Shown here: positions 6,400 to 49,453 of the stretch, one piece after another
Layout: every line of letters starts with the position of its first letter
Numbering within the stretch: position 1 is the stretch's first letter
Source of the DNA: an uncultured Holophagales bacterium
GTDB taxonomy: Bacteria; Acidobacteriota; Thermoanaerobaculia; UBA2201
DNA length: 64,000 nt
Direction of reading: 5' to 3'
Assembly: GCA_964603505.1 (NCBI GenBank)
Contig: CAZRVT010000009.1
Span: forward strand, 309-64,308
Notes under the pieces: model-generated
The model's database searches: none
What the model was told of the DNA's origin: nothing
Seen by the model: only the letters and a program-made list of their open reading frames with translations
Position numbers and translations under genes: made by a program

Positions 6400-6405
6400 G
6401 GAGTT

Positions 6406-6434: not shown

Positions 6435-6494
6435 AAAGCGCGGCGAACGGTCCGCCGCCCTTTCGGGCCATCTAATTATGGTAAAATTGCCGGA

Positions 6495-8721: not shown

Positions 8722-8728
8722 TCCTCCC

Positions 8729-9136
8729 ATGAAGGCCCGCCGCGTCCCCGTGGTTCTGCGCTTCGCCGACGGCCGGATGGAGAAGTGCTTCGTGAGCCCC
8801 TACTTCTCCCACAGCCTCCGGGTGGTCCAGGTCATCCGCGAGGACCGGTCGGTCGTCACCCATCCCATCGAGTCGCTCAAGGCGGTCTTCTTCGTCCGCG
8901 ACCTGGACGGCCGGGGCCACCCGCGAGGGCACTGGAAGGAGGAAGACCCCGAGGCCCTCAAGGCCGGTCGGGCGGTGGTGGTGCACTTCGCCGACGGCGA
9001 GCGCATCCGCGGGAGGGTGCTGGGCGACCCTGGGCAGGGGGCGGGCTTCTTTGTCTACCCCACCGAGCCCGGGTCCAATAACCTCAAGGTCTTCGTGGTC
9101 CGCGCCTCGACCACGGCCGTGGAAACCGAGGCATGA
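8729..9136 (+). CDS. Small protein with two tandem Sm-like strand motifs (paralog A of a three-member family in this window)
   Basis: Two repeats of the pattern V-x-V-x-F-x-DG-x-x-x-x-G/C-x-V: [15 protein letters not shown] and [17 protein letters not shown], plus GFFVYP and NNLKVFVV. It shares the motif architecture of the proteins at 40633..41058 and 39210..39590. Confidence 0.6.
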
Positions 9137-9642
9137 CCCTCCTCCTCCTGCTGGCGCTGACGCTTCACGACCTCGGGCGCACCCTGGCGGCCCACTCCGC
9201 TTTCACCGCCCGTTTCCGCCAGTCCGTGGCCCTCCCCTCCGGCGAGACCCTGGAGGAAAAAGGGACCGTGGCGTTCGTCTGGGGGAAAGGGCTGCGCTTC
9301 GATTACGCGGGAGGGGTGGGCAAGGCGTTCGTCTTCACCGCGGACGGCTGGTATTCGCGGGAAGGGGCCGCGGAGTGGAATTTCCAGCCCTGGGACGGCG
9401 CTTCTCCCCAGATGCATCCCTTCACCTTTCTCCTGGACGGCCGGGTGCCCGAAGGGGTCGCCTGGACCGTGACCGGCGCCGGAAACGCCGTGGAGGTCGC
9501 TTCAGCGAATCCCGTCTTCACCCTCACCCTCGACCGCCGCACCGGCTGGCCCCTCCGCTTCCAGGTGGATCAGGAGGACGGAAGCCGGAACACGCTGGAG
9601 TTCTCCGGCCACCGGGCCGAGGTGCGGGAGCTGATGCCTTGA
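9133..9642 (+). CDS. LolA-like outer-membrane lipoprotein carrier / LolA-fold protein
   Basis: N-terminal signal peptide [23 protein letters not shown] followed by FTARFRQ. Size (169 aa) and beta-rich composition fit a LolA/LppX fold. ATGA overlap with the upstream gene. Confidence 0.5.
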   Translation: MTLLLLLALTLHDLGRTLAAHSAFTARFRQSVALPSGETLEEKGTVAFVWGKGLRFDYAGGVGKAFVFTADGWYSREGAAEWNFQPWDGASPQMHPFTFLLDGRVPEGVAWTVTGAGNAVEVASANPVFTLTLDRRTGWPLRFQVDQEDGSRNTLEFSGHRAEVRELMP

Positions 9643-10613
9643 CCCTCGACGATTACGCCCTCCGCCTCAAGACCCAGATGGAAGCCATGGAGGCCCTCCT
9701 CCTGCGGGAACTGGAGCGCAGCCCGGAGGCCGTGGCGGCCGCCTCGCGCTACATCACCGACGCCGGGGGGAAGCGCCTCCGCCCCCTCCTCCTGCTGGCG
9801 TGCTCGGACCTGCTCGGGTACCGCCGGAAGGACCGGCTGGTCTTCGCGGCGGTGGTGGAGGCCCTCCACACCGCCACCCTCATCCACGACGACGTCATCG
9901 ACGAAGCCGATCTCCGCCGCGGCCGCCGGACTCTTCACCACGACCTGGGCAACCGTCTCTCCATCCTGGTGGGCGACTATCTCTACGCCCGGGTCATCCG
10001 CCTCGCCGTGGAGAAGGGGAACCTCGGGATCATCCAGCTCCTCTCCGACGCCACCCTGAAGATGACCGAGGGGGAGATCTGGGGCCTCACCCGGGCGGGC
10101 GATCCCCGGCTCACCATCGAGGAGTACTTCGCCCACATCGAGAACAAGACCGGCTACCTCTTCGCCGCGGCCGCCTCCATCCCCGCCCTGCTGGCCGGGC
10201 GGGAGCGTCTCGTCCGCCGGCTCCACGGGTTCGGCCTCCGGTTCGGGGTCTTCTTCCAGATCCTCGACGACCTGCAGGATTTTGCCGCCCGCGAGGAGGA
10301 GGCCGGCAAGCCGGTCATGCACGACCTCGAGGAGGGCAAGCTGGGGATCCCCATCCTGCTCCTGCTCCGGCGCCTCCGTGGGCGGGAGCGTCGGGAGGTC
10401 CTCGCCTGGCTGGAGGACGCCCCCCGCCGTCGTTACGACCTTCTGGACCGGCTGAAGGCGCACGGCACGCTCGTCGAGACCCGCGAGCTGGCCCGTGCCC
10501 ATGCCGCCGAAGCGTGTCGCGCCTTGTCGATTTTTCCGGCTTCCCCCGCTCTGGAGCTCCTTACCGCCCTTCCGGAGCGGCTCCTCTCCCTCCCCGCCTT
10601 TTCTCGTCTGTAG
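9639..10613 (+). CDS. Polyprenyl diphosphate synthase (IspB-type, trans-prenyltransferase)
   Basis: GGKRLRP, LIHDDVIDEADLRRG (first DDxxD) and FQILDDLQD (second DDxxD). Start uncertain: TTG at 9639 overlapping the LolA-like stop, or ATG at 9678. Confidence 0.85.
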   Translation: MTLDDYALRLKTQMEAMEALLLRELERSPEAVAAASRYITDAGGKRLRPLLLLACSDLLGYRRKDRLVFAAVVEALHTATLIHDDVIDEADLRRGRRTLHHDLGNRLSILVGDYLYARVIRLAVEKGNLGIIQLLSDATLKMTEGEIWGLTRAGDPRLTIEEYFAHIENKTGYLFAAAASIPALLAGRERLVRRLHGFGLRFGVFFQILDDLQDFAAREEEAGKPVMHDLEEGKLGIPILLLLRRLRGRERREVLAWLEDAPRRRYDLLDRLKAHGTLVETRELARAHAAEACRALSIFPASPALELLTALPERLLSLPAFSRL

Positions 10614-10685
10614 CCCTGCCCCATGGCCGGATCGGCGCAACGGCGCCGCGGCGCGTCTGCGCAGGCGTGGGGATGGGGGGGGCGG

Positions 10686-12248: not shown

Positions 12249-13022
12249 TTGGAGGCCTCCATGAGCCAACCCCCCATCCCTCCGCCCATCCCCGCCGGCC
12301 CGACGCCCAGGAAAAAGGGCCTGCCCGTCCTGGCCTGGGTGGCCATCGGCTGCGGCGCGCTCCTGCTGATCGCCGGCTTGGCCGTGGTGGCCGGGGGCTT
12401 TTTCGTGGCCCGCACCGTGGGCAAGGCGGCCCACAACCCCGAGATGGCCGCGGCCAAGTTGGTGGTGGCGGCCAACCCCGACCTGGAGATCGTCTCCACC
12501 GACGAGGGGGCCGGCACCCTCACGATTCGCAACAAGAAAACGGGGGAGGTGGTCACCATGGACCTTTCCCAGATCAAAAAGGGCAAACTCGATTTCACCG
12601 GCCCCAAGGGCGAGAAGCTCTCCATCGATGCCGAGGGGAAGGAGGGCCAGGGCACCCTGAACTTCCACTCCGACCAGGGAGACGTCACCTTCGGCGCCGG
12701 GACCGGGGACAAGCCGCCGGCCTGGATCCCCGAATACCCCGGATCCGCCCCCGAGGGCACCACCTCCATGACCGACAAAATGCGGACGGCCGGGGGGTTC
12801 ACGTTCAAGGTTCCCGACGCGCCCCAGGCCGTGCTCGACCGCTACGAGGCGGCGTTCAAGGCGGCGGGGTTCGAGACGGGGAAACAGACCTTCTCGGGCG
12901 GCGGCTCTACCGGCGGGGTGGTGAGCGCCAAAAGCGGCGGACGGTCCGCCGCCGTCTCGGTGGCCTCCGGCGACGACGGGACCACGGTGATGGTCAACTT
13001 CGAGGAGAAAAAGGCGGAGTAG
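12249..13022 (+). CDS. Hypothetical membrane-anchored protein, Lys/Gly-rich ectodomain
   Basis: A Pro-rich N-terminus and one TM helix (LAWVAIGCGALLLIAGLAVVAGGFFVA) followed by a soluble, protein-like domain. The antisense ORF 12152..12808 is junk. Confidence 0.55.
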   Translation: MEASMSQPPIPPPIPAGPTPRKKGLPVLAWVAIGCGALLLIAGLAVVAGGFFVARTVGKAAHNPEMAAAKLVVAANPDLEIVSTDEGAGTLTIRNKKTGEVVTMDLSQIKKGKLDFTGPKGEKLSIDAEGKEGQGTLNFHSDQGDVTFGAGTGDKPPAWIPEYPGSAPEGTTSMTDKMRTAGGFTFKVPDAPQAVLDRYEAAFKAAGFETGKQTFSGGGSTGGVVSAKSGGRSAAVSVASGDDGTTVMVNFEEKKAE

Positions 13023-13055: not shown

Positions 13056-14084
13056 TCAGCGGCCGCGAAACCGGTAGTGGGCCACCATCCACTCCCGCCC
13101 GCCCCGGTAGCCGAACAACTCGGCGCAGGCCATGAAGAAGACCCGCCAGAGGCGGAGGCGCTTGAGCCCCTCGCCGGGGCCGTAGACCTCCTGCAGGGCC
13201 TTCAGAGCCGCGGCCCGGTGGCGGTCCAGGCGGGACAGCCACGCCTCGCAGGTGCGCTGATAGTGGGTCCCGTCCACGAGCCATCGCTCCTCGATCAACA
13301 AGTCCTTTAGGAAGTGGAGGAGGAGGTCGGCCGAGGGCATCGTCCCCCCGGTGAAGAAATACCGCGCCATCCAGTCGGAGGCGTCGCGCACCTCGAAGGG
13401 GTAGGCGGCGGTGCGGTGGCAGAAGATATGGACGAAGCAGCGTCCCCCGGGCCGCATCCACGAGGCGATGCGCTCCATGAGGCGGCCGTAGTTGCGGACA
13501 TGCTCAAACATCTCCACCGAGACCACGCGGTCGAAGGTCCCCGCCGGGGCGAAAGCGTTGATGTCGGCGGTGGCCACGGCGACGTTGGACAGCCCCCGCT
13601 CCCGGGCCCGCGCCTCGATGAAGGCCTTCTGCGACGCGGAGTTCGAGACGGCGGTGATCCGGCTCTTCGGGAACCGCTCGGCCACAAACAGCGTCAGCGA
13701 GCCCCAGCCGCACCCCAGCTCCAGCACCTCCTGCCCGTCCTGGAGCAGGGCCCGGCGGGCCGTGAGGTCCAGCATCGCCTCCTCGGAGGCGTCGAGGGTC
13801 GCGGTCCCCTCGGGCCAGAGGCCGCACGAATATTTCATGCGCCGGCCCATCACCTGCTCGAAGAAGGCGGCGGGGACCTCGTAGTGCTGGGCGTTGGCGT
13901 CCTCGACGCTCAGCGCAATGGGGGACTCGCGGAGGGTCCGGAGGAACGCCTGGAGCCGCTCCTCCTGCCGGGCGGGGTCGGCCGCGGCCTCCTCCCGGAG
14001 GCGGGCGGTGAGGAGTCGGCGGATGCCGAGGCGGATCAGGGGATCGGGCAGGAGGCCCTTTTCGATCAGGGGGCGGAAGTCCAT
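13056..14084 (-). CDS. Cyclopropane-fatty-acyl-phospholipid synthase family SAM-dependent methyltransferase (copy 2)
   Basis: VLELGCGWGSL (SAM motif I) and the CFA-synthase-type ends YSCGLWPEGT, FEHV, YFFTGG. It is the last gene of the fatty-acid-modification operon. Confidence 0.85.
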   Translation of the reverse strand: MDFRPLIEKGLLPDPLIRLGIRRLLTARLREEAAADPARQEERLQAFLRTLRESPIALSVEDANAQHYEVPAAFFEQVMGRRMKYSCGLWPEGTATLDASEEAMLDLTARRALLQDGQEVLELGCGWGSLTLFVAERFPKSRITAVSNSASQKAFIEARARERGLSNVAVATADINAFAPAGTFDRVVSVEMFEHVRNYGRLMERIASWMRPGGRCFVHIFCHRTAAYPFEVRDASDWMARYFFTGGTMPSADLLLHFLKDLLIEERWLVDGTHYQRTCEAWLSRLDRHRAAALKALQEVYGPGEGLKRLRLWRVFFMACAELFGYRGGREWMVAHYRFRGR

Positions 14085-14882: not shown

Positions 14883-15751
14883 CGTCCCCCTCCCGTTCCC
14901 GCGGCCAGGACCGCCGGGGCGGGGCCGTGGAGCCCGCGCACCAACCCCATCCAGGAGGCGGCCCGGAGGAGATAATGGGTGGGGTCGAACTCCCACCAGA
15001 AGAACCCCTGCCGCTCGGAGATGGGGTAGTGGTGGTGGTTGTTGTGCCACCCCTCGCCCAGGGTCAGAAGCGCAATGAACGGATTGTTCCGGCTGGTGTC
15101 CTTCGTGGCGTAGCGGCGGCTGCCCCACACATGGGCCAGCGAGTTGACGGAGAAGGTGGCGTGGTAGAGCAGGACGGTGGAGAGGAAAAACCCCCACGCC
15201 AGCAGCTGCAGTCCGCCGGTCCCCAGGGCCGGGGCGCGGGCGGCCAGGACCTGCCCCGCGGCGAAGAGGGCGGCGGCCAGGCCGACGGGGACGAGGGCGT
15301 GGAAGCGGGTCAGGAAGACCAGCTCGGGGAAGGGCGTCCAGTCCTTCACCCGCGACGGGTCCCAGCTCTCGTTGGCCTTGCACAGGATCCATCCCATGTG
15401 CGCCCACCAAAACCCCTTGACCGAGGGGGAGTGGGGGTCGTTCTCGGTGTCGGTGGCCGCGTGGTGGCCCCGGTGGTGGGCGGCCCACCAGAGGGGGCCC
15501 ATCTGCCCCGCGGAGGTGCCGAGGAGGGCCAGGAGGAACTGGACCGCGCGGCCCGTCCGGTAGGAGCGGTGGGAAAAGTAACGGTGGAAGCCGGCCGTGA
15601 TGCCGAACATCCGGACGAGGTAGAGGCCGGCCGCGGCGCCCGCCGCGGTCCAGGAGAACTCCGCGAAGGGCAGGAGGAGGAGCCCCGCGTGGACCGAGAT
15701 GAACGGAAGGCTGCCGACGAGGTCCAGCCGCTCGTCCGGCCGGCGCGTCAC
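14879..15751 (-). CDS. Membrane fatty-acid desaturase, delta-9 (stearoyl-CoA/acyl-lipid desaturase) family
   Basis: Three histidine boxes: HRYFSH (HxxxxH), HHRGHH (HxxHH), HNNHHHYP (HxxHH). GTG start overlapping the upstream Cfa stop (GTGA). The rest of the 494-aa track ORF is a spurious in-frame extension. Confidence 0.8.
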   Translation of the reverse strand: MTRRPDERLDLVGSLPFISVHAGLLLLPFAEFSWTAAGAAAGLYLVRMFGITAGFHRYFSHRSYRTGRAVQFLLALLGTSAGQMGPLWWAAHHRGHHAATDTENDPHSPSVKGFWWAHMGWILCKANESWDPSRVKDWTPFPELVFLTRFHALVPVGLAAALFAAGQVLAARAPALGTGGLQLLAWGFFLSTVLLYHATFSVNSLAHVWGSRRYATKDTSRNNPFIALLTLGEGWHNNHHHYPISERQGFFWWEFDPTHYLLRAASWMGLVRGLHGPAPAVLAAGTGGGR

Positions 15752-17007
15752 GCGGCCCCTCCCCCGAGGGAGTGGTTGCCGGGGCGGGTCAGGACCAGCT
15801 GGAGGTCGTTGAGGTGTCGGGCCCGGAAGCCGGCTTCGCAATAAGCGAAATAGTATTCCCAGGCGCGCAGGAACCGCTCGTCCCGCCCCTGGGCGAGGGC
15901 CTCCTCCCGGTGGGCCAGGAGGGCCTCCCGCCAGGCCCGGAGGGTGGGGGGGTAGTGGGGGCCGATGTTCTCCAAATGCTCCACCGTCAGCGCGGAGTGG
16001 CGCGTCATGGCCGCCGACAGCGCCGTGAGGGAGGGGAGGAGAGCGCCGGGGAAGATCGCCCTCTGGATCCAATCGCCGGTCCGGCGATAGGCCTCGTACC
16101 GCTGGTCCGGGATGGTGATCACCTGCACCACCGCCAGTCCGTCGGGCTTCAGGAGGCGGTCGAGGGCCCGGAAGAAGGCGGGGAAATTCTCGTGCCCGAC
16201 CGCCTCCAGCATCTCGATGGAGACGATCCGGTCGAAGGCGCCCTCCAGCCGCCGGAAGTCGCGCAGGAGCACCTCCACCCGCCCTTCCAATCCGGCCTCT
16301 CGCACCCGCTCCCGGGCGAGGCGGTGTTGTTCCTCGGAGATGGTCACGGTCGTCACCCGGCAACCCGCGGAGGCCGCGGCCTCCAGGGCGAACGAGCCCC
16401 AGCCGGAGCCGATCTCGAGGAGGTGGTGTTCCGGCGCCAGTCGGGCCTTCTCCAGGACCGCCCGCAGTTTCCGGCGCTGGGCCTGTTCCAGCGTGTCCCC
16501 CTCACGCCAAAGGGCGCAGGAGTAGGTCATGGTGGGGTCGAGGAAGAGACGGAAGAAATCGTTGCCCAGGTCGTAGTGGCGGCGGATGTTGCGGCGGCTG
16601 CCCGGCACGGTGTTCCGGTTCAACCGGTGGCGGATCCGGTGGAGGAGGCGGCCGAGCGCCGCGGAGCCGATCCGGCGGTCGTCCACCGCGGCCGCGTTCC
16701 GGATCAGGAACTCGATCAGCCCGGGCAGGTCGGGGGTCTCCCAGTCGCCGTCCACGAAGGCGTCGCCGAAGCCGAGGTCCGCCTCCAGAAGGACGCGGCG
16801 GAAGAACCGTTCCCGGCGGACCCACAGGGCCGCCACCGGGCCCCCGGACGGGCCGAAGGCGAGCGAGGCGCCGTCGGGAAGAGACATCATCAGGCGCCCT
16901 TCCCGGATCCGCGCCAGCATCCCCAGCACGGGCCGGCGGGCGAGCCGGTCGAGCGGTCTGGGGCGGGCGGGGGGGGCGTCGAGGATCCATTCATCGGGTT
17001 CGGTCAT
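15748..17007 (-). CDS. Cyclopropane-fatty-acyl-phospholipid synthase family SAM-dependent methyltransferase (copy 1)
   Basis: LLEIGSGWGSFAL (motif I) and the Cfa-type MTYSCALW, IEMLEAVGHENF, YFAYCEAGF. Confidence 0.9.
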   Translation of the reverse strand: MTEPDEWILDAPPARPRPLDRLARRPVLGMLARIREGRLMMSLPDGASLAFGPSGGPVAALWVRRERFFRRVLLEADLGFGDAFVDGDWETPDLPGLIEFLIRNAAAVDDRRIGSAALGRLLHRIRHRLNRNTVPGSRRNIRRHYDLGNDFFRLFLDPTMTYSCALWREGDTLEQAQRRKLRAVLEKARLAPEHHLLEIGSGWGSFALEAAASAGCRVTTVTISEEQHRLARERVREAGLEGRVEVLLRDFRRLEGAFDRIVSIEMLEAVGHENFPAFFRALDRLLKPDGLAVVQVITIPDQRYEAYRRTGDWIQRAIFPGALLPSLTALSAAMTRHSALTVEHLENIGPHYPPTLRAWREALLAHREEALAQGRDERFLRAWEYYFAYCEAGFRARHLNDLQLVLTRPGNHSLGGGAA

Positions 17008-17857
17008 GGGGTTTACTCCGGTCGAACAGCGCCCCCGCGCGGGCCAAAAGCGGCGAGGTGGCGAGGCGCTGGAGCAGGGGCTCGCGTCCCTTGATGAACG
17101 TGTCGGGGGAGGCGGGCTCGGGCTTGGGATGAAAAGGGAGCTTCCGGCGGTAGTAAAGCTTGGACGCCTGCCACAGGATGCGCGGCATGGTCAAGGCGGC
17201 GGTCAGGGGATGGCGGAGGGCGGCGGACAGGAGGGTTCCGCCCCCCAGGGGCCGAAGGGGCCCCCACAGGCGGGCACGGAACGCCTCCTCGCCGTCGCGG
17301 AACAGCCGGGCGGTGACGTCGAGCCCCTCGCGGGGGTCGCCGAAGGTGAACGCGTAGGTGCCGGAGCGGTCGAAGAAGGGGGAGACGTGGAAGGCCTTGG
17401 CGAACTCGTACCGGACGGGCCAGGCGCCGTCGCCCGCGGGGGTATGGAGGACATAGAGGTGGGCCTCGCCGAAGGTGTTGGCCACCTCCGCCACCGTGGC
17501 GCGCAGGGTGCCGTCCCCCCGCAGGGCGAGGAAGAACGAGACGGGGTTGAAGACATACCCGAACCACCGCGCCGAGGTGATGAGGAGGGTGCGCTCCACG
17601 CCGTCGGCGCATCCGCGCTCCTTCAGCAGGGCCAGCAGGCGCTCTTTCATCGGGCCGGCGCCGCCGCGGAGGTAGTCCCGATCCCAAAGGGAGACGGGCC
17701 GGAACCGGTTGTAGCCGAATCCCCCCAGGGTTTGGTCCAAAACAGGCAGATCGTCCAGATCGAAGAGATAGGCCAGGACGGGATACTGGAAAGCGTGCCC
17801 GACCGGTCCCAGGCGAGCGTGCATCACCCGGCCCCGCACGAGGAAGGAGTTCACCAT
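16991..17857 (-). CDS. DUF1365 family protein
   Basis: Starts MVNSFLVRGRVMHARLGPVGHAFQYPVLAYLFDLDDL, characteristic of DUF1365 (commonly encoded between an amine-oxidase-like gene and cfa). The rest of the 625-aa track ORF is spurious. Confidence 0.7.
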   Translation of the reverse strand: MVNSFLVRGRVMHARLGPVGHAFQYPVLAYLFDLDDLPVLDQTLGGFGYNRFRPVSLWDRDYLRGGAGPMKERLLALLKERGCADGVERTLLITSARWFGYVFNPVSFFLALRGDGTLRATVAEVANTFGEAHLYVLHTPAGDGAWPVRYEFAKAFHVSPFFDRSGTYAFTFGDPREGLDVTARLFRDGEEAFRARLWGPLRPLGGGTLLSAALRHPLTAALTMPRILWQASKLYYRRKLPFHPKPEPASPDTFIKGREPLLQRLATSPLLARAGALFDRSKPHDRTR

Positions 17858-19146
17858 GCCGCTCCGAGACTCCGCGCGGCCTCGACCCCCGAACGGACGG
17901 CGTCCTCGTGGAAGCCGTTGTGGAAGTAGGCCCCGCAGAACCAGGTGCGCCGGGTCCCGTTGAGGCCGGGGAGGAGGGCCTGCGTGGCCACCGCCTCGCG
18001 CGTGTAGAGGGGATGGGCGAACTCCACCGATTCGATGACCCGATCCGGGGCGACGGCGGCGCGCCGATTGAGGGTGACGAGATACTCCTCCCGCGTCCGA
18101 AGCCCCTGCAGACGGTTCATGTGATAGGTCAACGAAACCGGGTCGCCGGGCGCGGCGCCGCGCTCCCGGGCGTAGTTCCACGAGGCCCACGCGCTCCGCG
18201 CCCGCGGAAGGACCGAGGCGTCGGTGTGGAGGATGGTGAGGTTGCGCGAATAGCGCCAGGCCCCCAGGAGGCGGCGCTCCTCCTCGGAAGGGTCGGCCAG
18301 GAGGGCCAGGGCCTCGTCGGCGTGGGTCGCCACGACGGCATGGTCGAACCGCTCCTCCGTCCCCCCGAAGCGGACGCGCACCCCCCCCTCCTCCCGGAGG
18401 AGGGCCTCCACGCGACAGGCCGTCCGCACCGTCCCGGCGAACCGCCGCAGGAACGCGTCCACATACGACCGGCTCCCCCCTGCGACGGTCTGCCAGCGGG
18501 GGCGGTCCCTCAGGGAGAGGAGCCCGTGGTTGCGGAAAAACCGCATGAAAGCGGCGGCGGGAAACTCCAGGATCCGGCCCGGGGCCGCCGACCAGATGGC
18601 CGCCCCCATCGGAAGGAGGTAACGCTCGCGGAACGGGGCCGAGTAGCCCCCCTCCTGGAGATACGCCCCCATCGTCACCGTCTCCAGGTCCCTCCGCCCC
18701 CGCAGGTCCTCCAGCGCCGAGCGGCTGAACCGCCGGATCTCCCACAGCATGCTCCAGAAGGCCGGGGAGAAGAGGTTCCGCCGCCGGGAAAAGAGGCCGT
18801 TGAGGGTCGTTCCGGCGTAGTGGAACCCGCTGGTCTCGTCGTGGTAGGCGAAGGACATGTCGCTCCACCGCCAGGCGACCCCGAGGTCGGCCAGCAACCG
18901 GTGGAGGGTGGGGTAGGTGCGGTCGTTGAGGACGATAAAGCCCATGTCCACCCGGGTCCCGGCGTCCGGCCCGGAAGGGACTTCGACCGTGTGGACATGT
19001 CCCCCCAGCCGGGGGCCCTTCTCGAAGAGGGTGACCCGGTGGCGCCCCTGGAGGAGGTGGGCGGCGGCGATCCCCGCCGCCCCCCCGCCGATGACGGCGA
19101 CGGTGCCGGGTGGCGGGGGGGGCATGGGCGTGGAGGGGGCGGGCAT
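17851..19146 (-). CDS. FAD/NAD(P)-binding amine-oxidase-family oxidoreductase (COG2907 type, UfaD-like)
   Basis: Dinucleotide-binding motif VAVIGGGAAGIAAAHLL and a flavin amine oxidase-like C-terminus (FCGAYFHNGFHEDAVRSG). Start set at MPAPSTP (19146) rather than track start 19230. Confidence 0.8.
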   Translation of the reverse strand: MPAPSTPMPPPPPGTVAVIGGGAAGIAAAHLLQGRHRVTLFEKGPRLGGHVHTVEVPSGPDAGTRVDMGFIVLNDRTYPTLHRLLADLGVAWRWSDMSFAYHDETSGFHYAGTTLNGLFSRRRNLFSPAFWSMLWEIRRFSRSALEDLRGRRDLETVTMGAYLQEGGYSAPFRERYLLPMGAAIWSAAPGRILEFPAAAFMRFFRNHGLLSLRDRPRWQTVAGGSRSYVDAFLRRFAGTVRTACRVEALLREEGGVRVRFGGTEERFDHAVVATHADEALALLADPSEEERRLLGAWRYSRNLTILHTDASVLPRARSAWASWNYARERGAAPGDPVSLTYHMNRLQGLRTREEYLVTLNRRAAVAPDRVIESVEFAHPLYTREAVATQALLPGLNGTRRTWFCGAYFHNGFHEDAVRSGVEAARSLGAAW

Positions 19147-19189
19147 GTTTGCGCTATAACAACGACGGAAGGGCTCCCCTTCCCATCGC

Positions 19190-20101
19190 TCAGGGCGCGG
19201 GGACCGGCACCCGGCGGGTTTGAGCCGCAATGGCCGAGCGGATCGCCGGCAGGGCCGCGCGGGCGGCCGCCATTCCCGCCTCGAAGAGACGCTTCTTCTG
19301 AGTAAAGTCGTCGTAGGCCACGCCGGCCACTTCGGGGGTGATCACCACATCCGCCCGTTGGAGGGTGCACCGCCCCACTTCGGAAGCCATGATCGCCGCC
19401 GCCTGGATGGCCACCTCGAAGGGGTTGGAGGGGGCGCGGGCCGGCACTCCCGCCGGGATGCTCACCGCGATGACCACTTCGGCGCCCATGGCGCGCACCG
19501 CGTCCACCGGGACGGGGGCGGTCACCCCCCCGTCGACGAAGACGCGCCCGTCGATGGAAACCGGGACGAAGACGCCCGGGATGGCCGCGGAGGCGTGGAC
19601 GGCCCTGGCGGCCGGGCCCTGCCGGAAGGCCACCGTCTCGCCCGTCCGGAGGTCCACGGCGACGGCGGCGTAGGGGACGGCAAACCCCTCGATGGTCTTG
19701 TGCTTGAGGCGGGCGTCGAGGAAGGCCTCGATCCGCTCGCCCTTGACGAACCCGCCCGAGAAAAAGGCCAGGGTGGAGCGGTCGAAGATGTCCTCGGCGG
19801 TCACCTGGACCGAGGTGAACTCCAGATCCACCACCGATCCCGAATCGGCGTAGAGGGCCCCGATGAGGGCCCCGACGGAGGTGCCGGCGACGCGGTCCAC
19901 CGGGATCCTCTCCTGCTCGAGCACCCGCAGGACGCCCACTTCGGCGAAGCCCCGAGCGCCGCCTCCGCCAAGGGCCACCCCGACCACGGGGGGGACCTCT
20001 TTCCATGCCGCCGGGGCGGGCGGCGGGGGAGAGGGCGGGGTGGCACAGGCGGCGAGCACGAGGCACAGTGACGGCAGGGTTCCGGCGAGGGTGCGTTTCA
20101 T
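19190..20101 (-). CDS. Patatin-like phospholipase, lipoprotein-type signal
   Basis: GGGARG oxyanion motif and GTSVG (GxSxG nucleophile elbow). DGGV (catalytic Asp) is present. Signal peptide MKRTLAGTLPSLCLVLAACA with a lipobox-like LAAC. Confidence 0.85.
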   Translation of the reverse strand: MKRTLAGTLPSLCLVLAACATPPSPPPPAPAAWKEVPPVVGVALGGGGARGFAEVGVLRVLEQERIPVDRVAGTSVGALIGALYADSGSVVDLEFTSVQVTAEDIFDRSTLAFFSGGFVKGERIEAFLDARLKHKTIEGFAVPYAAVAVDLRTGETVAFRQGPAARAVHASAAIPGVFVPVSIDGRVFVDGGVTAPVPVDAVRAMGAEVVIAVSIPAGVPARAPSNPFEVAIQAAAIMASEVGRCTLQRADVVITPEVAGVAYDDFTQKKRLFEAGMAAARAALPAIRSAIAAQTRRVPVPAP

Positions 20102-25771: not shown

Positions 25772-26493
25772 GGCTGGATCTCGCCGAGCCGCCGTCCGCC
25801 GGGGAGGCCGCCCCGCCGGGAGACGCGCCGCCGCCGGGACCCCGGGGGCTTCGCGGCCGCTGGGCCGCCCGGCCCCGGTGGGTGGACCACGTCCTCGCCG
25901 CTTCCGGGACCCTCCTGCTGGCCATCCTCTTCTTCCTCTCCACCGGCGTCACCCGGGCGGCCCTCCCCCTCGACCGAATGACCACCGATCCCCAAGCCCC
26001 CATCCCTCTGGAGAAGGGGGAGGAGAAGAAGATCCGCTCCGGCCTGCCCAACCGCCCCTACCTTGCCGTGGACCGGGCCAACAACATTATGTGGCTGCGG
26101 CAGGGAGACGGCACCCTCCTCCGGAGGATGGTCGTCTCGGCGGGCTCCGGCGGGGTGCTGAAGGAGCCCAACGGAAAGCGGACCTGGGTCTTCGATACGC
26201 CGTTGGGGGTATTCACCATCAAGGGGAAACAGGAGGACCCGGTCTGGGTCAAACCCGACTGGGCCTTCATTGAGGAGGGGGAGCCGATCCCCAAGGACTA
26301 CTCCGAGCGGTTCGAATCGGGCATGCTCGGAGAGTACGCCATGTCCCTCGGGGGCGGCTATCTCATTCACGGGACCCTCTACGAACGCCTCCTGGGAAGG
26401 AATGTCACGCATGGGTGCATCCGCGTCGGCCGCGACGACCTGCGGGTCGTGGTCAAGACCGTTCGCGTCGGCGATCGCGTTTATATTTTTTAG
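25747..26493 (+). CDS. L,D-transpeptidase (YkuD domain), second copy, membrane-anchored
   Basis: IHGTLYERLLGRNVTHGCIRV (catalytic His/Cys), preceded by a TM anchor VLAASGTLLLAILFFLSTGV. Start uncertain (GTG 25747 chosen); the long upstream part of track ORF 24928..26493 is spurious. Confidence 0.65.
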   Translation: MEKRKSLIGLDLAEPPSAGEAAPPGDAPPPGPRGLRGRWAARPRWVDHVLAASGTLLLAILFFLSTGVTRAALPLDRMTTDPQAPIPLEKGEEKKIRSGLPNRPYLAVDRANNIMWLRQGDGTLLRRMVVSAGSGGVLKEPNGKRTWVFDTPLGVFTIKGKQEDPVWVKPDWAFIEEGEPIPKDYSERFESGMLGEYAMSLGGGYLIHGTLYERLLGRNVTHGCIRVGRDDLRVVVKTVRVGDRVYIF

Positions 26494-27115
26494 CCTCGCC
26501 CTGTTCCCCCAGGCGCAGGCGCTCACCGCCCACGAGAAGTCGCTGGCGGCGAAGGACGCGTTTTACTTCCTCGTCGACCTTCCCGCCAAGCGGATGATCC
26601 TCAAGTACCACGGCGCCCACCTGGCCGACTGGCCCATCCAGGCGGTCGAGACCATCGCGGCCCGCTTCCTCTTCTTCAAGCGGGTGCCCCACAAATTTCC
26701 CGAGGTCTTCTACATTCACGACGCCCTCATCGACCCCCCCGTGGAAATCCCCCGTCCGGAGATCATCCCCCCCGACCCCAACGCGCCGGAGGAGACCGGA
26801 TCCTCCGCCATCCCCCCCACGATGGAGGAGCTCATCAAGGCGCCGCAGGACTACACCTTCCGGGGCGACGCCCCGTGGCTGGTCCGCGTCCACATGCCGG
26901 AGGTCCCCAAGAACGGCATTCCGCCGCCCGAGCTGGCGGAGTCGTTCCGCACCCGCTTCGGCGACTTCATCAAGGGGATCACCGGCGATATTCCCCCCGT
27001 CCTCATCCTGACCCTGGCGAACGAGGACGGCGAGAAGATCTATCGCGCCTTTCCCGAGAAGGTCAACCTCCTCGTCTATTTCACCCCCCCGGTGCCGGAG
27101 AGCAGCGACCGGTAA
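26411..27115 (+). CDS. Hypothetical secreted protein
   Basis: Signal peptide ...RPFASAIAFIFFSLALFPQAQA|LTAHEKS. The mature region is protein-like and Pro-rich. Start uncertain (ATG 26402 or 26411); it overlaps the preceding gene's end. Confidence 0.45.
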   Translation: MGASASAATTCGSWSRPFASAIAFIFFSLALFPQAQALTAHEKSLAAKDAFYFLVDLPAKRMILKYHGAHLADWPIQAVETIAARFLFFKRVPHKFPEVFYIHDALIDPPVEIPRPEIIPPDPNAPEETGSSAIPPTMEELIKAPQDYTFRGDAPWLVRVHMPEVPKNGIPPPELAESFRTRFGDFIKGITGDIPPVLILTLANEDGEKIYRAFPEKVNLLVYFTPPVPESSDR

Positions 27116-27300
27116 TGGCATGATCCTCCCGATCTCTCGCACCGTTTCCCTGTCGGCTGGCGCAGTCTGGGCCTCCTCCTTTGGGGCACAAAGAAAGGGA
27201 TAGGGATCCTGCCATCCGTTGTAGCTTTCGGGGTTCGGCAGTCTCCTGGCCCTTCCCCGGATTCATCAACTCAACGATGGAGCAAACCCGAGCGTTTCCA

Positions 27301-28422
27301 TCACCGATCCCCTCCGACCTGTTGCCTCGCGGTCAGGCCTTCCCGATTGTTGATCCTGAACACCGGGATCTCCGAGCCCACGAACAAGCGCATGGGCGGG
27401 CCCCAGGTGCCGGCGCCCGAGGTGGTGTAGAGGTAGGCGTCCCCCTCGCGGTAGAGCCCGTAGGGGTATTCGAAAAAAGCGAAGATGATGGCGTCCAGCG
27501 GGGGGATCTGCCCCGCGTGCAGGTGGCCCGAGAGCTGGAGCTTCACGCCCGCCGCGCGGGCCAGGTCGAAGGCCCGCGGCGGGTGGTACAGGAAGAGAAC
27601 GGGGCGATCCGGCGGGAGGCCGGCGAAGAACGCCTTCGGCGTGACCGCCGGCTTCATCCCCATCCCCCGCCCCGCCGGATCGTCGAGCCCCGCCACGGTC
27701 CAGCCGTTGGGCAGGTCCGCGCGCTCGTTCCTCATCCAACGGAACCCCGCCCGGGTCACCAGGTCGCCGGCTCGGTCCAGCCCGGTGTAGAACTCGTGGT
27801 TGCCCGGCACGGCCCAAACGCCCAGGGGGGCCCGCAGGCGCCGGAGGGAGGGGATCAGGAATTCCAGCCCGCCGTTCCGCTCGTCCACCAGGTCCCCCGT
27901 GATGGCGATCAGGTCGGGTTTCGCGGCCAGCGTCCGATCGGCCAGACGCTCCACCTGCTTCGGCGAGGTCCAGCGGTTGAGGTGGACGTCGGAGAGATGG
28001 GCCACCGTCATCGGGGGCGCCCCGGGGATGGCGAGGTCGACGACCTTCACCTGGGGCGGAAGGGCGTTGTGGACCAGCGACACCGCCGCCGCGATGGCCG
28101 TCAGGGCCAGCGCCGCGATGTCGAAGGCGCGGGCGTGGGGCCTCCAGAGGAGCGTCGGGACGAGGAAGAGGAGCCAGAAGGTGAAGGCGATGAACACGGT
28201 GCCGAACCAGACATCGGCCCACACGGCCAACGGCTTCCAAGCCAGCGGCGTGACCCGAACGACGAGGAAGAGCAGGCCGGAGGCGGCGAAGAACGCTCGC
28301 AGGGTCCACAGCCAGGGCGCCGAGGGGGCGAACGCCCGGACGGCGAAATGGTAGAGGGGGAGGTGGGCCGAGCCGTACACGGCCGCGAGGACGACGACGA
28401 AGAGAAGGAGACCGAGACGCAT
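27301..28422 (-). CDS. Membrane-anchored calcineurin-like metallophosphoesterase (YkuE-like)
   Basis: Four N-terminal TM helices, then the phosphoesterase motifs HLSDVH, GDLVD, GNHE and GHLH. Confidence 0.8.
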   Translation of the reverse strand: MRLGLLLFVVVLAAVYGSAHLPLYHFAVRAFAPSAPWLWTLRAFFAASGLLFLVVRVTPLAWKPLAVWADVWFGTVFIAFTFWLLFLVPTLLWRPHARAFDIAALALTAIAAAVSLVHNALPPQVKVVDLAIPGAPPMTVAHLSDVHLNRWTSPKQVERLADRTLAAKPDLIAITGDLVDERNGGLEFLIPSLRRLRAPLGVWAVPGNHEFYTGLDRAGDLVTRAGFRWMRNERADLPNGWTVAGLDDPAGRGMGMKPAVTPKAFFAGLPPDRPVLFLYHPPRAFDLARAAGVKLQLSGHLHAGQIPPLDAIIFAFFEYPYGLYREGDAYLYTTSGAGTWGPPMRLFVGSEIPVFRINNREGLTARQQVGGDR

Positions 28423-28489: not shown

Positions 28490-29164
28490 TCACACGTGGC
28501 GCGGCGGAAGCGGCGGGGTCCCTCCGGGTCCGGGCGGGGCGTCGGTGCGCATCTCCACCCGCCCCGGATCCATCCCCTCGGGGAATTGGATGAAGGCCCC
28601 GTTGATCAAAACGATGTCCGCGTCGAAGCCCCGGGTCGTCCCCTCGGGCGTGTCCACGAGGTCCCATCGCTCCCATGCGCCGTCCTTCCCCGCGCTTCCG
28701 AGGGCGTAGAGGGTGGGGGCCTCGTCCGCCTCGTCCTGAAGCCACGACTCGTACTTCAGCGCCCGGCCCCAACCGTCGGTCCGGGGCATTGCCTGGATAT
28801 AAGCGGGCTCCAGCAGGGCGGCCAGTTCTTCGATGGTGCCGGCGTCGGGGTAGGCCTGGGCGTCGGTCGCGTAGGCCTCCACCGCCGCGGCGATCCGCCG
28901 CATGTCGGCGATGGTGCGCAGTTGTTTATGGCGTTCCGCGGCGTTCAGCAAGCGGGGGATAGCGACGAAGGCGGCGACGCCGCCGACCGCCAGGAGAAGG
29001 AGCATCCCGCCGGCGGCGAAGAGGGCGATATTGGCGGCGGCGGTCCCGCTGGAGGGGGCGGCCGGCGGGGCGGGGGCCTCTCCCCCGAACCCCGTGGCGG
29101 TCCCGCACCACCGGCAAAACCGGTCGGTGTCGCCGACGGAGGTGCCGCACCGGGGGCAGAACAT
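28490..29164 (-). CDS. Zinc-ribbon / TM / pseudopilin-like (GspG-type fold) fusion protein lacking a prepilin leader
   Basis: N-terminal CPRCG...CRWCG zinc ribbon, then a TM helix ending in the pilin-like AIP (VAAFVAIPRLLNAAERHKQLRTIADMRRIAAAVEAYATDAQAYPDAGTIEELAALL). The C-terminal WGRALKYES...LGSAGKDGAW resembles the GspG DPWGxxY...LGxDGxxGG core. There is no G-F/M-T-L-I-E prepilin peptidase site. Confidence 0.6.
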   Translation of the reverse strand: MFCPRCGTSVGDTDRFCRWCGTATGFGGEAPAPPAAPSSGTAAANIALFAAGGMLLLLAVGGVAAFVAIPRLLNAAERHKQLRTIADMRRIAAAVEAYATDAQAYPDAGTIEELAALLEPAYIQAMPRTDGWGRALKYESWLQDEADEAPTLYALGSAGKDGAWERWDLVDTPEGTTRGFDADIVLINGAFIQFPEGMDPGRVEMRTDAPPGPGGTPPLPPRHV

Positions 29165-29189
29165 TTATGCCCGCCCCCTCCGGCCAGCT

Positions 29190-29219
29190 GAAGGCGGAAG
29201 GCGGAAGGCGGAAGGGCGG
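29190..29219. repeat. Heptamer tandem array (GAAGGCG)x3-4 in the intergenic spacer, followed by two copies of AACTCTGA
   Basis: gaaggcg gaaggcg gaaggcg gaagggcgg, lying between the zinc-ribbon pseudopilin-like gene start and the next gene's stop. Confidence 0.8.
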
Positions 29220-29274
29220 CCCAGGCGGGACTCCGAACTCTGAGCTCCCAACTCTGAACTGGAGCGAAGCGACT

Positions 29275-29634
29275 TCACCACTTCGGCGCCTCCTCCATCT
29301 GGTAGGTGGAACCGCAGTAGGGGCATCGCACGGAGATGCCCCCCTCGGCGACGGTGATGTTGTCCTTGCCCAGGGTGCCCGAGCACTGCCGGCACCGCAT
29401 CTCTTGGAGCTTCAGCTCGCCGGGGGCGTCGAGGGTGTGCTTGATCTCCACCTTCTGGATGACGGGCCGGGCGAAGGTCCAGCGGACGACGAGCCATCCC
29501 AGGGCGAACAGCACCGCGGCCACCGCGAGCCGGCCCGGGGAGAACGGATGCGGGCCGCTGGGGAAGGCGGCGATGAGGAACAGCAGCCCCAGCCCGAAAC
29601 AGGCGGCCGAAGCGAGGTAGGCGAGGATCTTCAT
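29275..29634 (-). CDS. Membrane protein with C-terminal zinc-ribbon (CxxC...CxxC)
   Basis: Two TM helices (ILAYLASAACFGLGLLFLIAAF, LAVAAVLFALGWLVV), then CRQCSG...CPYCGS. Likely co-transcribed with the downstream zinc-ribbon pseudopilin-like gene. Confidence 0.5.
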   Translation of the reverse strand: MKILAYLASAACFGLGLLFLIAAFPSGPHPFSPGRLAVAAVLFALGWLVVRWTFARPVIQKVEIKHTLDAPGELKLQEMRCRQCSGTLGKDNITVAEGGISVRCPYCGSTYQMEEAPKW

Positions 29635-29723
29635 GGCGTCATTTTACCATTTCCAATCGGGGTCGGAATGGGGTAAAATCGATCAACGCTTTGATGAGCA
29701 AGCCAACTACACGAGGAGGGACT

Positions 29724-32435
<2,712 letters not shown>

Positions 32436-49070: not shown

Positions 49071-49453
49071 CAGAGGGCCTCCTGGGGGGGGGGTTCGTAA
49101 ACGGCGCAAGAGGTGGGGGTTTCCCACACTTCCACCCGGTGCACCGCGGGGCCGGGGGGGAGGCGCCGGGCCACCTCCGCGGCGATGTGGCGGGCCAGGT
49201 TTTCGGCCGTGCTGTTGACGGTGTCGAAGGGGGGGACCGCGGCGAGGTCGGCGTGGTCCATCGGGGCGGTCGCTTCGCGCAGGATGCGCTTGAACTCGGT
49301 GAAGTCGAGGACCATGCCCAAGGGGTCGAGGGCCGCGGCGCGCAGGAACACGCGGGCCCGGTAGTTGTGCCCGTGCACCTTCTCGCAGGGCCCCTGGTAG
49401 CCCCGGAGGCGGTGGGCGGCGGAGAACTCTATTTCCTTGCTGACGAAGTACAT
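49070..49453 (-). CDS. queD: 6-carboxy-5,6,7,8-tetrahydropterin synthase (PTPS family)
   Basis: FSAAHRL...GHNY...CxxxHGH-type PTPS motifs (EIEFSAAHRLRGYQGPCEKVHGHNY) in a 127-aa protein. Confidence 0.85.
   Translation of the reverse strand: MYFVSKEIEFSAAHRLRGYQGPCEKVHGHNYRARVFLRAAALDPLGMVLDFTEFKRILREATAPMDHADLAAVPPFDTVNSTAENLARHIAAEVARRLPPGPAVHRVEVWETPTSCAVYEPPPQEAL

Follow-up and report, generated by a model that had tools for sequence, protein, structure and literature searches.

A zinc-ribbon-anchored pilin-like protein without a class III signal peptide in uncultured Acidobacteriota

Every type IV filament subunit is considered to be defined by a class III signal peptide with its Gly-1, Phe1 and Glu5 residues, and genome pipelines label proteins carrying a T2SSG head as GspG, PulG or PilA. 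A gene in the 64,000-nucleotide stretch of DNA analyzed here (the 64-kb window) encodes a 224-residue protein in which a pilin-like helix and head are preceded by a zinc ribbon. The question raised by this locus is whether the protein is a true relative of the pilins and, if so, what role such a protein may serve. Both open reading frames of the preliminary description, that of the 224-residue protein and that of a ribbon protein upstream of it, are present on the minus strand (Table 1).

Table 1. Positions of the features discussed, numbered from the first letter of the window
Feature	Positions	Strand	Basis and remarks
119-aa protein with two TM helices and a C-terminal CRQC..x19..CPYC ribbon	29275..29634	minus	Upstream co-directional ORF
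Shine-Dalgarno-like GGAGGGGG	29174..29181	minus	9 nt 5' of the ATG at 29164; read from the sequence
Gene for the 224-aa zinc-ribbon-anchored leaderless pilin-like protein	28490..29164	minus	Stop codon 28490..28492; Zn_Ribbon_1 and T2SSG above gathering cut-offs
N-terminal zinc ribbon, residues 1-24, C3-x2-C6 ... C17-x2-C20	29093..29164	minus	Zn_Ribbon_1 match
Gly/Pro/Ala/Ser-rich flexible linker, residues 25-44	29033..29092	minus	pLDDT <50 for residues 27-38
Single hydrophobic helix, pilin α1N equivalent, residues 45-70	28955..29032	minus	Profile alignment to PulG 5WDA and type IV pilins
α1C helix and GspG/PilA-type globular head, residues 71-198	28571..28954	minus	T2SSG, head profile, AlphaFold, Foldseek
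C-terminal tail, residues 199-224, Pro-rich, poorly conserved	28493..28570	minus	pLDDT <50 for residues 199-224
373-aa membrane-anchored calcineurin-like metallophosphoesterase	27301..28422	minus	Downstream co-directional, 67-nt gap; Pfam Metallophos 50 bits
Terminator-like hairpin after the third gene	27198..27217	minus	Only one on this strand here; consensus match, count not above shuffle expectation
Stand-alone MshEN domain protein	49429..50022	minus	MshEN 78 bits; MshE-type c-di-GMP motif 60.7 bits

The placement of GGAGGGGG supports a start of translation at the zinc ribbon. A regular expression for the prepilin motif (G|F/M-T-L-I-E) has no match in any frame of the gene or in the rest of the window, and a mis-called start or hidden prepilin motif was ruled out by this search of all frames together with the ribosome-binding site at the ribbon start. 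A protein identical to the 224-residue product (P0001) is present in public metagenomes, on independent contigs from two samples. The gene is under purifying selection: against an orthologue of 89% identity, the whole gene has a pN/pS of 0.35 and the part coding for the TM helix and head one of 0.28. For ribbon, linker and tail together the ratio has the relaxed value of 0.67, with small counts and too few sites in the ribbon alone.

The N-terminus reads MFCPRCGTSVGDTDRFCRWCG and forms a CxxC-x10-CxxC zinc ribbon, which matches Zn_Ribbon_1 (PF13240) over residues 2–22 with 26.7 bits (gathering cut-off 25) and is predicted to bind zinc. Its four cysteines are kept at identities as low as 39% where the N-terminus of the homologue is complete, and the linker that follows varies in length and sequence across the leaderless family described below.

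The head comprises an α-β loop helix and β strands, with the motifs DGW..Y, GSAGKDG and FDADIV..NG.F..P.G. T2SSG (PF08334) matches residues 72–163 with 22.7 bits, a margin of just 1.7 bits over the gathering cut-off of 21, and reaches 28–105 bits in relatives of the protein. The NCBIfam GspG model (TIGR01710) scores 30.2 bits, far under its cut-off of 88.85, so that the equivalog threshold is not reached. A head-only profile built from 17 family members matches the soluble domains of GspG structures (2KEP, 8.5e-7; 3GN9, 3.7e-6; 3FU1, 6.8e-6; 4LW9, 1e-5) and aligns the family motifs DGWg..rYe and YalGsaGkDG with GspG DPWGNPYQY and LGADGKEG. The AlphaFold model of the head alone has a pLDDT of 94.5 and a pTM of 0.88, and its top Foldseek matches are the GspG structures 3GN9 and 4LW9 (probability 1.00, TM-score 0.55–0.63, identity 24–26%), followed by type IV pilins. 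The full-length model gives weak pilin matches only (best E 0.03), since the comparison is dominated by its long helix and disordered ends. As judged by these profile and model comparisons, the resemblance of the head to GspG is not compositional, and the 224-residue protein is a genuine relative of the subunits of pili and type II secretion pseudopili.

GspG (PulG, EpsG, XcpT), the major pseudopilin of the T2SS, is the best PDB match by both sequence profile and structure. Features common to the two proteins are the hydrophobic α1 with Gly14 and Ala-Ile-Pro22, α1C, the α-β loop, and the β-sheet head with DPWG..Y.Y-like and LG.DG-like motifs. The 224-residue protein differs from GspG in that: (i) the leader peptide, the Gly-1/Phe1 cleavage and methylation site and Glu5 are missing; (ii) a 24-residue zinc ribbon and a 20-residue linker are added N-terminal of the helix; (iii) the β2-β3 loop is about 12 residues longer and extra C-terminal strands (T..FD.DIV..NG.F.QYPEG) are present; and (iv) its gene lies outside any gsp operon.

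The helix itself is the equivalent of the pilin α1N. The full-length family profile aligns it with α1N of PulG and type IV pilins, placing A68-I69-P70 at the helix end on pilin A20-I21-P22, and the match to pilin α1 spans Gly14–Pro22. In the aligned stretch F49-A-A-G-G53 the equivalent of Phe1 is Phe49, and Glu5 of PulG (5WDA) faces Gly53. No N_methyl or prepilin family was found in the protein in the Pfam scan, even at E<=1. We set 25 leaderless proteins against 95 canonical GFTLIE pilins from their phylum. Gly-1, Phe1, Thr2, Leu3, Ile4 and Glu5 are 96–100% conserved in the canonical set only; Glu5 is present in 100% of the canonical pilins, and the corresponding position is glycine in 64% of the leaderless set. 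The segment G62–P70, in contrast to these residues, is conserved in both groups, with G62 and P70, which align to G14 and P22, at 100% in the leaderless family. The two sets also have in common almost every conserved residue between Gly14 and the C-terminal strand. In this alignment the class III signal motif has evidently been lost from the leaderless family, and with the processing site and Glu5 gone and a folded domain at the N-terminus, the protein would probably be neither processed nor polymerized. The preliminary description had proposed a pilin-like fold in which a zinc ribbon replaces the prepilin peptidase site. Pfam, the profile-to-PDB comparison and AlphaFold/Foldseek agree on a pilin or pseudopilin fold that keeps α1 and head, with a likeness to GspG/PilA structures beyond low complexity, and the replacement is borne out by Pfam and by the family comparison with canonical pilins.

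In profile score, too, the canonical Acidobacteriota GFTLIE pilins come closest (E 1e-35 to 1e-47). They have the same head, including the C-terminal extension, and nearly identical conserved residues from Gly14 on, but they have retained Glu5 (100%) together with the class III signal peptide and occur as two or three tandem paralogues in pilus loci, near genes for a PilS-like kinase, a PilT-like ATPase and minor pilins. The leaderless proteins are instead single-copy, are encoded in unrelated loci, never adjoining pilus genes, and carry a ribbon or a multi-TM N-terminus.

In an exhaustive search, the family profile, whose top hit is the 224-residue protein, retrieved 3415 representative clusters at E<=1e-10 and 406 at E<=1e-30. 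Most of the best clusters carry the ribbon, and others have multi-TM, Sec-exported tandem-head or TonB_C/TPR fusion architectures; among the top representatives with a full head, the ribbon is present in 82/135 and GFTLIE in 7/135. Same-clade orthologues insert three extra hydrophobic segments between ribbon and pilin helix, and Thermoanaerobaculia members are without the C-terminal tail. Some relatives consist of a Sec-type signal peptide followed by two to four tandem heads without α1N, and further ones join the head to TonB_C, TPR or a ParA-like ATPase; by their architecture, these Sec-exported and fused heads show that a pilin-type head can work without a filament. The 224-residue protein has the signature of the family: an N-terminal CxxC..CxxC, a variable linker, an α1 conserved only from Gly14, no GFTLIE, and a DGW / SAGKDG / FD.DIV..NG.F.QYP.G head. 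Databases name the family automatically as 'GspG/PulG/PilA/PilE', and we found no dedicated Pfam or NCBIfam model for it. The literature on pseudopilins, GspG, zinc ribbons and pilin-like or T2SSG domains yielded no description of the ribbon-anchored architecture, and the paper on MasABK concerns proteins unrelated to this one (PMC3546991). By the profile search, the leaderless family is a sizeable one in Acidobacteriota, for which we found no prior description.

The genes around the pilin-like gene differ between clades. In the source clade, the neighbouring 119-residue protein has a highly conserved C-terminal CxxC..CxxC ribbon, probably cytoplasmic, and weak ribbon matches only in Pfam. Its family is tiny (11 clusters), and hhalign finds nothing but the ribbon knuckles in common between it and the ZnR-CD225 neighbours in other clades, described below. 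Adjacency of the two genes is limited to the closest clade (loci L001–L012, L014 and L098) and is found in none of the other 79 related loci. The genes are four genes apart in L013, and L095 has the 119-residue and Metallophos genes and no pilin-like gene; the 119-residue gene remains next to aconitase also at loci from which the pilin-like gene is missing or has been displaced. The upstream two-TM gene with a C-terminal ribbon noted in the preliminary description is thus real, but its pairing with the pilin-like gene does not hold, and a functional pairing as a property of the family was ruled out, the synteny being confined to one narrow clade. On the other side, the 373-residue metallophosphoesterase has weak, sub-threshold NCBIfam matches to YaeI and LpxG, and its synteny with the pilin-like gene extends to L001–L014 and L098 only. 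The arrangement is compatible with a three-gene transcript ending at the hairpin downstream.

In Thermoanaerobaculia, a ZnR-CD225 gene and then a DUF2752 gene lie downstream of the leaderless gene in 19/19 loci, 0–10 nt past the stop codon (219 nt in L016), and stop and start codons often overlap. The ZnR-CD225 proteins likewise have an N-terminal Zn_Ribbon_1, a flexible linker and a TM module, but where the leaderless proteins have a pilin head, these have a CD225/dispanin domain as their extracytoplasmic or membrane part. In two of them, the first 70 residues match the family profile at E of about 1e-5.

The protein previously read as a GspE N-terminal domain turned out to be a stand-alone MshEN c-di-GMP-binding domain. 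It is encoded 20 kb away among queD, proline dehydrogenase and queA, housekeeping neighbours by which a link to the pilin-like gene was ruled out. No T2SS or T4P genes were found in the 64-kb window, and no T2SS machinery or pil/gsp linkage in 26 non-redundant leaderless loci, each taken with flanks of as much as 10 kb. The search for orthologues and their co-occurrence with T2SS or T4P genes, proposed earlier, recovered a family with no linkage to pil or gsp genes in these loci.

For the location of the head, one indication comes from a cysteine pair at the base of the β1-β2 hairpin (Cys140/Cys150), which the 224-residue protein itself does not have. Cys150 is present in 46/47 sequences with Cys140 and in 5/88 without it (Fisher 3.5e-29, phylogeny ignored), and this co-occurrence, together with the Sec-exported relatives, points to a periplasmic head. 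The orientation of the helix is not settled by the positive-inside rule because the flank on its C-terminal side has a strong positive charge, which is also the case in real pilins. A naive count of the three extra segments in same-clade orthologues would place the head in the cytoplasm, and this counts against the periplasmic model.

Taking these results together, we propose, with a probability of roughly 60%, that the 224-residue protein is an exapted, unprocessed and non-polymerizing pilin or pseudopilin head that is statically tethered to the inner membrane. It would be a bitopic inner-membrane protein with its N-terminal zinc ribbon in the cytoplasm and its GspG/PilA-type head on the periplasmic face, the single helix representing a degenerate pilin α1N. 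Prepilin peptidase would have nothing to cut without Gly-1/Phe1, and extraction from the bilayer would be blocked in a protein that lacks Glu5 and has a bulky folded N-terminus. With no Gly-1/Phe1, no Glu5 and an unextractable N-terminus, the protein would not be fed into a growing filament, and would for that reason constitute a static membrane-tethered periplasmic module rather than a fibre subunit. Its most likely role would be that of a binding or scaffolding head. The helix, in which Gly14–Pro22 is strictly conserved, and the ribbon probably contact other small membrane proteins, for which possible partners are the neighbouring 119-residue ribbon protein in the source clade and the ZnR-CD225 and DUF2752 pair in Thermoanaerobaculia. 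We infer the topology, the complex formation and the binding or scaffolding role alike. Three further observations count against the proposal: (i) the strict conservation of Gly14–Pro22 and of α1C surface residues that true pilins have as well could mean docking to pilus machinery or pilins; (ii) the proposed partners depend on the clade, and the 119-residue one is dispensable; and (iii) the T2SSG margin of this one sequence is small. A more general and more tentative idea, to which we would give somewhat less than even odds, is that such proteins form an unrecognised class of 'anchored pilins': former filament subunits that would serve, independently of T2SS and T4P, as the periplasmic heads of ribbon-held inner-membrane complexes with the clade-specific partners named above.

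The protein could instead be a working T4P or T2SS part, that is, an unextractable pilin mimic that docks via α1 (Gly14–Pro22) to the assembly platform, a PilS-type sensor or the membrane pilin pool while its ribbon touches a cytoplasmic component, and that acts as a base anchor, terminator or regulator of fibre assembly. PilS senses PilA via intramembrane contacts with α1N. The nearest relatives of the protein are pilins in T4P-type loci, and residues from G14 to about position 58 and most of those on the head surface are conserved as in canonical pilins of the same phylum, which exceeds the needs of a plain anchor. We nevertheless regard such a function as unlikely, given the lack of pil/gsp linkage in the 26 leaderless loci and the window, the loss of Glu5, which serves docking of the incoming subunit and is implicated in PilS sensing, and the existence of soluble Sec-exported and fused heads that function without a filament.

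Transmembrane signalling of the anti-sigma or one-component type appears less probable again. The head would sense a ligand or the state of the envelope, and the ribbon would bind or release a cytoplasmic regulator, nucleic acid or the neighbouring ribbon protein. Membrane anti-sigma factors have a small cytoplasmic Zn-binding domain, one TM helix and an extracytoplasmic domain, an arrangement that the 224-residue protein would resemble by analogy; the ribbon is conserved family-wide, and in two clades the neighbours include small membrane proteins that bear a ribbon. However, no sigma-factor or regulator gene is adjacent in either clade, the ribbon is a generic Zn_Ribbon_1 with no anti-sigma zinc-finger family among the Pfam matches, and the pN/pS of ribbon, linker and tail is relaxed (small counts). 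Hardly any weight is left for an annotation or assembly error, an ordinary prepilin with a mis-called start or a decaying dead pilin copy. The database labels of the family and a few departures of the protein from the α1 consensus, such as AIPRLL for AIPNFL, would fit such an artefact, but it is already contradicted by the results: the GFTLIE-like motif is missing throughout, the ribbon is in frame behind a good ribosome-binding site and conserved at the protein level to 39% identity, the identical protein recurs in two samples, pN/pS is low overall and in the head, and hundreds of diverged clusters retain the architecture.

The gene and its family show that a pilin lineage can lose its class III signal, gain a zinc ribbon, probably cytoplasmic, or a multi-TM anchor, and still be kept by purifying selection in loci that have no relation to pili or secretion. 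The pilin head may have an activity independent of the filament, for example in binding or scaffolding, and the inventories of secretion systems and pili in Acidobacteriota are probably inflated by leaderless proteins. The family also offers a natural experiment that may separate the parts of α1 needed for life in the membrane from those needed for polymerization. Should the wider idea of anchored pilins be true, a pilin lineage would for the first time on record have replaced its class III signal peptide, which is supposed to be universal. The pilin head would then also be a module that can be carried between periplasmic proteins, which the Sec-exported tandem heads and the TonB_C/TPR fusions would likewise suggest. 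The organisms are uncultured lineages known from MAGs, and the immediate impact is moderate.

A converse case exists in archaea, where class III (pilin-type) signal peptides occur on non-pilin proteins, for example sugar-binding ones. Evolution has likewise uncoupled and reused the pilin signal or helix and the head there, but it is the pilin-type signal that is found on non-pilin domains, whereas the leaderless family keeps the head and most of the helix and loses the signal.

Finally, the Ca2+ site of EpsG lies in the β2-β3 loop with what we take to be two Asp ligands. In the HMM alignment, the aspartate of EpsG 'GADG', presumably the first of these ligands, is opposite Ala158 of the 224-residue protein, with Asp161 nearby, and Asp183 of the 'DADI' motif is near-invariant in the leaderless family.

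The 224-aa protein contains an N-terminal Zn_Ribbon_1 domain (residues 2–22; 26.7 bits, Pfam cut-off 25) and a T2SSG domain (residues 72–163; 22.7 bits, cut-off 21). A Pfam scan to E ≤ 1 found no prepilin or N_methyl family, and the NCBIfam GspG equivalog scored 30 bits, below its cut-off of 88.85. Together with the ORF calls, these scans show the preliminary description of the sequence to be accurate; it left out only the minus-strand placement of the genes.

The pilin resemblance is real, as judged by three independent lines: sequence profiles, fold and canonical relatives. In a 12-sequence family profile, the TM-helix part matches PulG (5WDA, 4e-7), geopilins and type IV pilins, and the head part matches GspG soluble domains. 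A head-only profile, which excludes the TM helix, matches XcpT (2KEP, 8.5e-7) and 3GN9, 3FU1 and 4LW9 (1e-5 to 4e-6), aligning the family motifs DGWg..rYe and YalGSAGKDG with DPWGNPYQY and LGADGKEG. The full-length AlphaFold model (pLDDT 73) combines a helix of 63 residues with a second, short one and a small sheet; a head-only model from 55 sequences reached pLDDT 94.5 and pTM 0.88, and its best PDB matches in Foldseek are GspG of Vibrio vulnificus and V. cholerae (probability 1.00, TM-score 0.55–0.63, identity 24–26%), with type IV pilins next. Profiles and model thus recover the GspG-like pilin fold that had been proposed from sequence.

When one genome per GTDB species was scanned, 80 related loci emerged, about 30 leaderless and about 50 encoding ordinary prepilins whose GFTLIE motif is perfect and whose head is the same. 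In an alignment of 25 leaderless and 95 canonical proteins, nearly all conserved residues from pilin Gly14 onward are common to both groups (224-aa numbering: G62, I63, A66–N71, R78, Q81, R83, D87, R89, E96–Y98, D101, Y105–P106, P120, Y122, P127, D130–W132, Y153, S157, G159, T177, F180, D183–I184, G189, F191, P195 and G197), whereas Gly-1, Phe1, Thr2, Leu3, Ile4 and Glu5 reach 96–100% conservation among the canonical proteins and are not conserved among the leaderless ones, 64% of which have Gly at the Glu5 position. Based on this pattern, the 224-aa protein is a true pilin homologue and, with the missing N_methyl match, the reported absence of a prepilin processing site stands. Only the processing/assembly end of alpha1N has decayed, a ribbon and linker having been added ahead of it.

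An exhaustive HMMER search over 1.84 billion representatives returned 17,947 proteins at E ≤ 1e-3, which will include ordinary pseudopilins, 3,415 at E ≤ 1e-10 and 406 at E ≤ 1e-30. Among the best 150 matches plus the first 13, 135 proteins have a complete head: 82 carry an N-terminal ribbon (52 with 1–2 hydrophobic segments, 30 with 3–6), GFTLIE is present in 7, and the remaining 46 begin in other ways. P0023, P0024, P0058 and P0138 have a Sec-type signal peptide followed by 2–4 tandem heads without alpha1N, and heads are also fused to TonB_C (P0078), TPR (P0151), a ParA/MinD-like ATPase (P0118) and DUF3352 (P0014); the pilin head has therefore been employed repeatedly outside filaments. All leaderless loci of the genome scan are from Acidobacteriota (Thermoanaerobaculia, Holophagales and unclassified), a range that may be underestimated since the scan patterns were derived from the window's clade. 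Source databases name family members "general secretion pathway protein G", "PulG", "PilA" or "PilE"; neither Pfam nor NCBIfam holds a dedicated model, and full-text searches of the literature turned up no account of a ribbon-anchored leaderless pilin architecture. Systematic loss of a "universal" pilin signal across a large conserved family would surprise a specialist, and the family bears on secretion-system annotation.

A third of the family carries a pair of Cys, equivalent to residues 140 and 150, on either side of the beta1–beta2 hairpin. Of the 47 proteins with Cys140, 46 also have the second Cys; among those lacking Cys140 the figure is 5 of 88 (Fisher 3.5e-29, with no correction for phylogeny). 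This co-occurrence is the signature of a putative disulfide, which would place the head in an oxidising compartment. This pair, the Sec-exported relatives and the need of a Cys4 ribbon for a reducing compartment support an N-in/C-out topology in single-TM proteins. The Cys140/Cys150 pair is absent from the window protein itself, and for that reason its topology is one that we infer. Four same-clade orthologues are longer by about 145 residues, which include three additional hydrophobic segments, and the putative disulfide pair is present in 2 of 23 insert-bearing forms versus 30 of 48 single-TM forms. An even crossing count would place the head of insert-bearing orthologues in the cytoplasm; either their third segment, of 29 residues, is re-entrant, or the two forms differ in where the head lies.

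In the window, the 224-aa gene is the second of three co-directional genes, with a ribosome-binding site (GGAGGGGG) 9 nt ahead of its ATG. The third encodes a membrane-anchored calcineurin-like phosphoesterase (Pfam, NCBIfam) and has the strand's only terminator-like hairpin behind it, a weak match because hairpins are no more numerous than expected from shuffles. The order aconitase/119-aa/pilin-like/Metallophos is kept in the window's clade (L001–L012, L014, L098) and is not obligatory: UBA2201-type loci have a CN_hydrolase gene between the pilin-like and Metallophos genes, four genes separate the 119-aa and pilin-like genes in L013, and L095 has the 119-aa and Metallophos genes without the pilin-like gene. 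No homologue of either neighbour was found in the other 79 related loci, so the suggested pairing with the 119-aa ribbon protein is confined to one clade and breaks down even there. The 119-aa family (11 clusters; window gene and P0162–P0172) always adjoins aconitase in divergent orientation. The window's 119-aa protein has a pair of hydrophobic helices and ends in a CxxC..CxxC region that gives only weak Pfam ribbon matches; this very strongly conserved C-terminal domain (VEIKHTLDAPGELKLQEMRCRQCSGTL...CPYCGSTYQMEEAPKW) is probably cytoplasmic. One member was mislabelled RpoP/RPC12 by JGI. On Holophagales UBA2201-type contigs, the SIR2_2-to-ResIII block appears to be a defence-island insertion.

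Coordinates of features in the window and in related loci
Feature	Location	Strand	Remarks
119-aa protein gene	29275..29634	-	ORF
224-aa pilin-like protein gene	28490..29164	-	ORF; 110-nt gap after 119-aa gene
373-aa protein gene	27301..28422	-	ORF; 67-nt gap after 224-aa gene
Aconitase	29691..32435	+	divergent, upstream of 119-aa gene
TTCCGCC, three in tandem (ccttccgccttccgccttccgccttc)	29190..29216	-	in 110-nt spacer, directly upstream of the pilin-like gene's ribosome-binding site
Stand-alone 197-aa MshEN domain protein	49429..50022	-	MshE-type c-di-GMP-binding motif NF053729, 60.7 bits
1234-aa sigma-54 activator	727..4431	-	Sigma54_activat, AAA lid, HTH_8
Small Metallophos gene	4428..5105		overlaps start of sigma-54 activator gene
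Two cyclopropane-fatty-acid-synthase-like methyltransferases and amine-oxidase-type flavoprotein, clustered	13056..14084, 15748..17007, 17851..19230	-	possible lipid-modification locus
ORFs without Pfam match	26270..27115 / 9570..10640 / 12249..13022	+ / - / +	gene-like codon bias, GC3 0.76–0.92
Insert-bearing orthologues	P0004, P0005, P0007, P0008; L003 10001-11116; L013 9827-11002		insert between ribbon and pilin helix
Leaderless/ZnR-CD225/DUF2752 loci	L009, L015–L034; e.g. L022 3564-4847, L027 9998-11266		
SIR2_2 + HerA/DUF87 pair, Trypsin_2 protease, ResIII helicase	L003–L008, ~600–9400		directly upstream of 119-aa gene; absent from window

The context in Thermoanaerobaculia differs from that of the window's clade and is much tighter. 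The leaderless gene is followed by ZnR-CD225 (zinc ribbon plus CD225/dispanin) and DUF2752 genes in 19/19 loci with enough flank, usually downstream of suf genes and FeS_assembly_P, and ZnR-CD225 starts 0–10 nt past the leaderless stop codon, often overlapping it (219 nt in L016). Two CD225 neighbours match the profile of the pilin-like family (E ~1e-5) through their N-terminal ribbon, linker and TM. The arrangement looks like a conserved three-gene membrane module; neither CD225 nor DUF2752 genes occur in the 64-kb window. The canonical pilin relatives are encoded by 2–3 tandem genes, accompanied by genes for a PilS-like kinase, a PilT-like ATPase and a minor pilin.

The best-supported reading, to which we assign a probability of about 0.6, is an unprocessed, non-polymerising, membrane-tethered periplasmic pilin head. 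Upon membrane insertion the ribbon would remain in the cytoplasm and the head would face the periplasm; prepilin peptidase would make no cut because Gly-1 and Phe1 are missing, and the protein would not dock beneath a growing fibre, since it lacks both Glu5 and a free, N-methylated N-terminus and the folded domain at that end could not exit the membrane. Unprocessed and undocked, it would thus act as a static periplasmic head, probably within a small membrane complex, where it may bind partners or serve as a scaffold. The analysis demonstrates homology, fold, loss of the motif, conservation, selection and the lack of neighbouring machinery genes, whereas topology, absence of processing and polymerisation, partners and a binding or scaffold activity are deduced. 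Gly14–Pro22 is strictly conserved, as are surface residues common with real pilins, and this would also suit a mimic still able to dock into components of T4P or T2SS, where it would be an anchor, terminator or regulator, but Glu5 is lost and linkage to T4P/T2SS genes is lacking, which makes this unlikely. We regard a receptor or anti-sigma-like signalling protein as more doubtful still.

That the gene is an artefact or pseudogene is contradicted and highly improbable. Compared with its 89%-identical orthologue in L098, dN/dS is 0.35 overall, and pN/pS is 0.28 over TM helix and head and 0.67, from small counts, over ribbon, linker and tail, with all four Cys unchanged; the same comparison gives 0.22 for the 119-aa gene. 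By analogy, the protein may work like a membrane-tethered pilin head. It belongs to the T2SSG domain superfamily and the Zn_Ribbon_1 domain family and is not a GspG, as tested by leader, Glu5, equivalog score and operon context, and its family is best filed as a pilin lineage with the class III signal peptide replaced.

No pilin, secretin, GspE/PilB, PilC or PilD gene is found in the 64-kb window, whose housekeeping genes include purH, CorA, CFA synthases, aconitase, YkuD transpeptidases, PBP2/RodA, RNase G and a heptosyltransferase. The protein previously taken as a GspE N-terminal domain is instead the stand-alone MshEN protein, with no visible connection to the pilin-like gene. It is joined to no ATPase or glycosyltransferase and is probably a free c-di-GMP receptor; its neighbours on one flank are DUF1573 and Glucodextran_B-like genes, and on the opposite flank queD, proline dehydrogenase and queA. 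The sigma-54 activator is an enhancer-binding protein of unusual size, with a ~930-residue N-terminal region containing TPR. The ORF at 26270..27115, which has the YkuD transpeptidase genes on one side and the Metallophos gene on the other, is kept in syntenic relatives.
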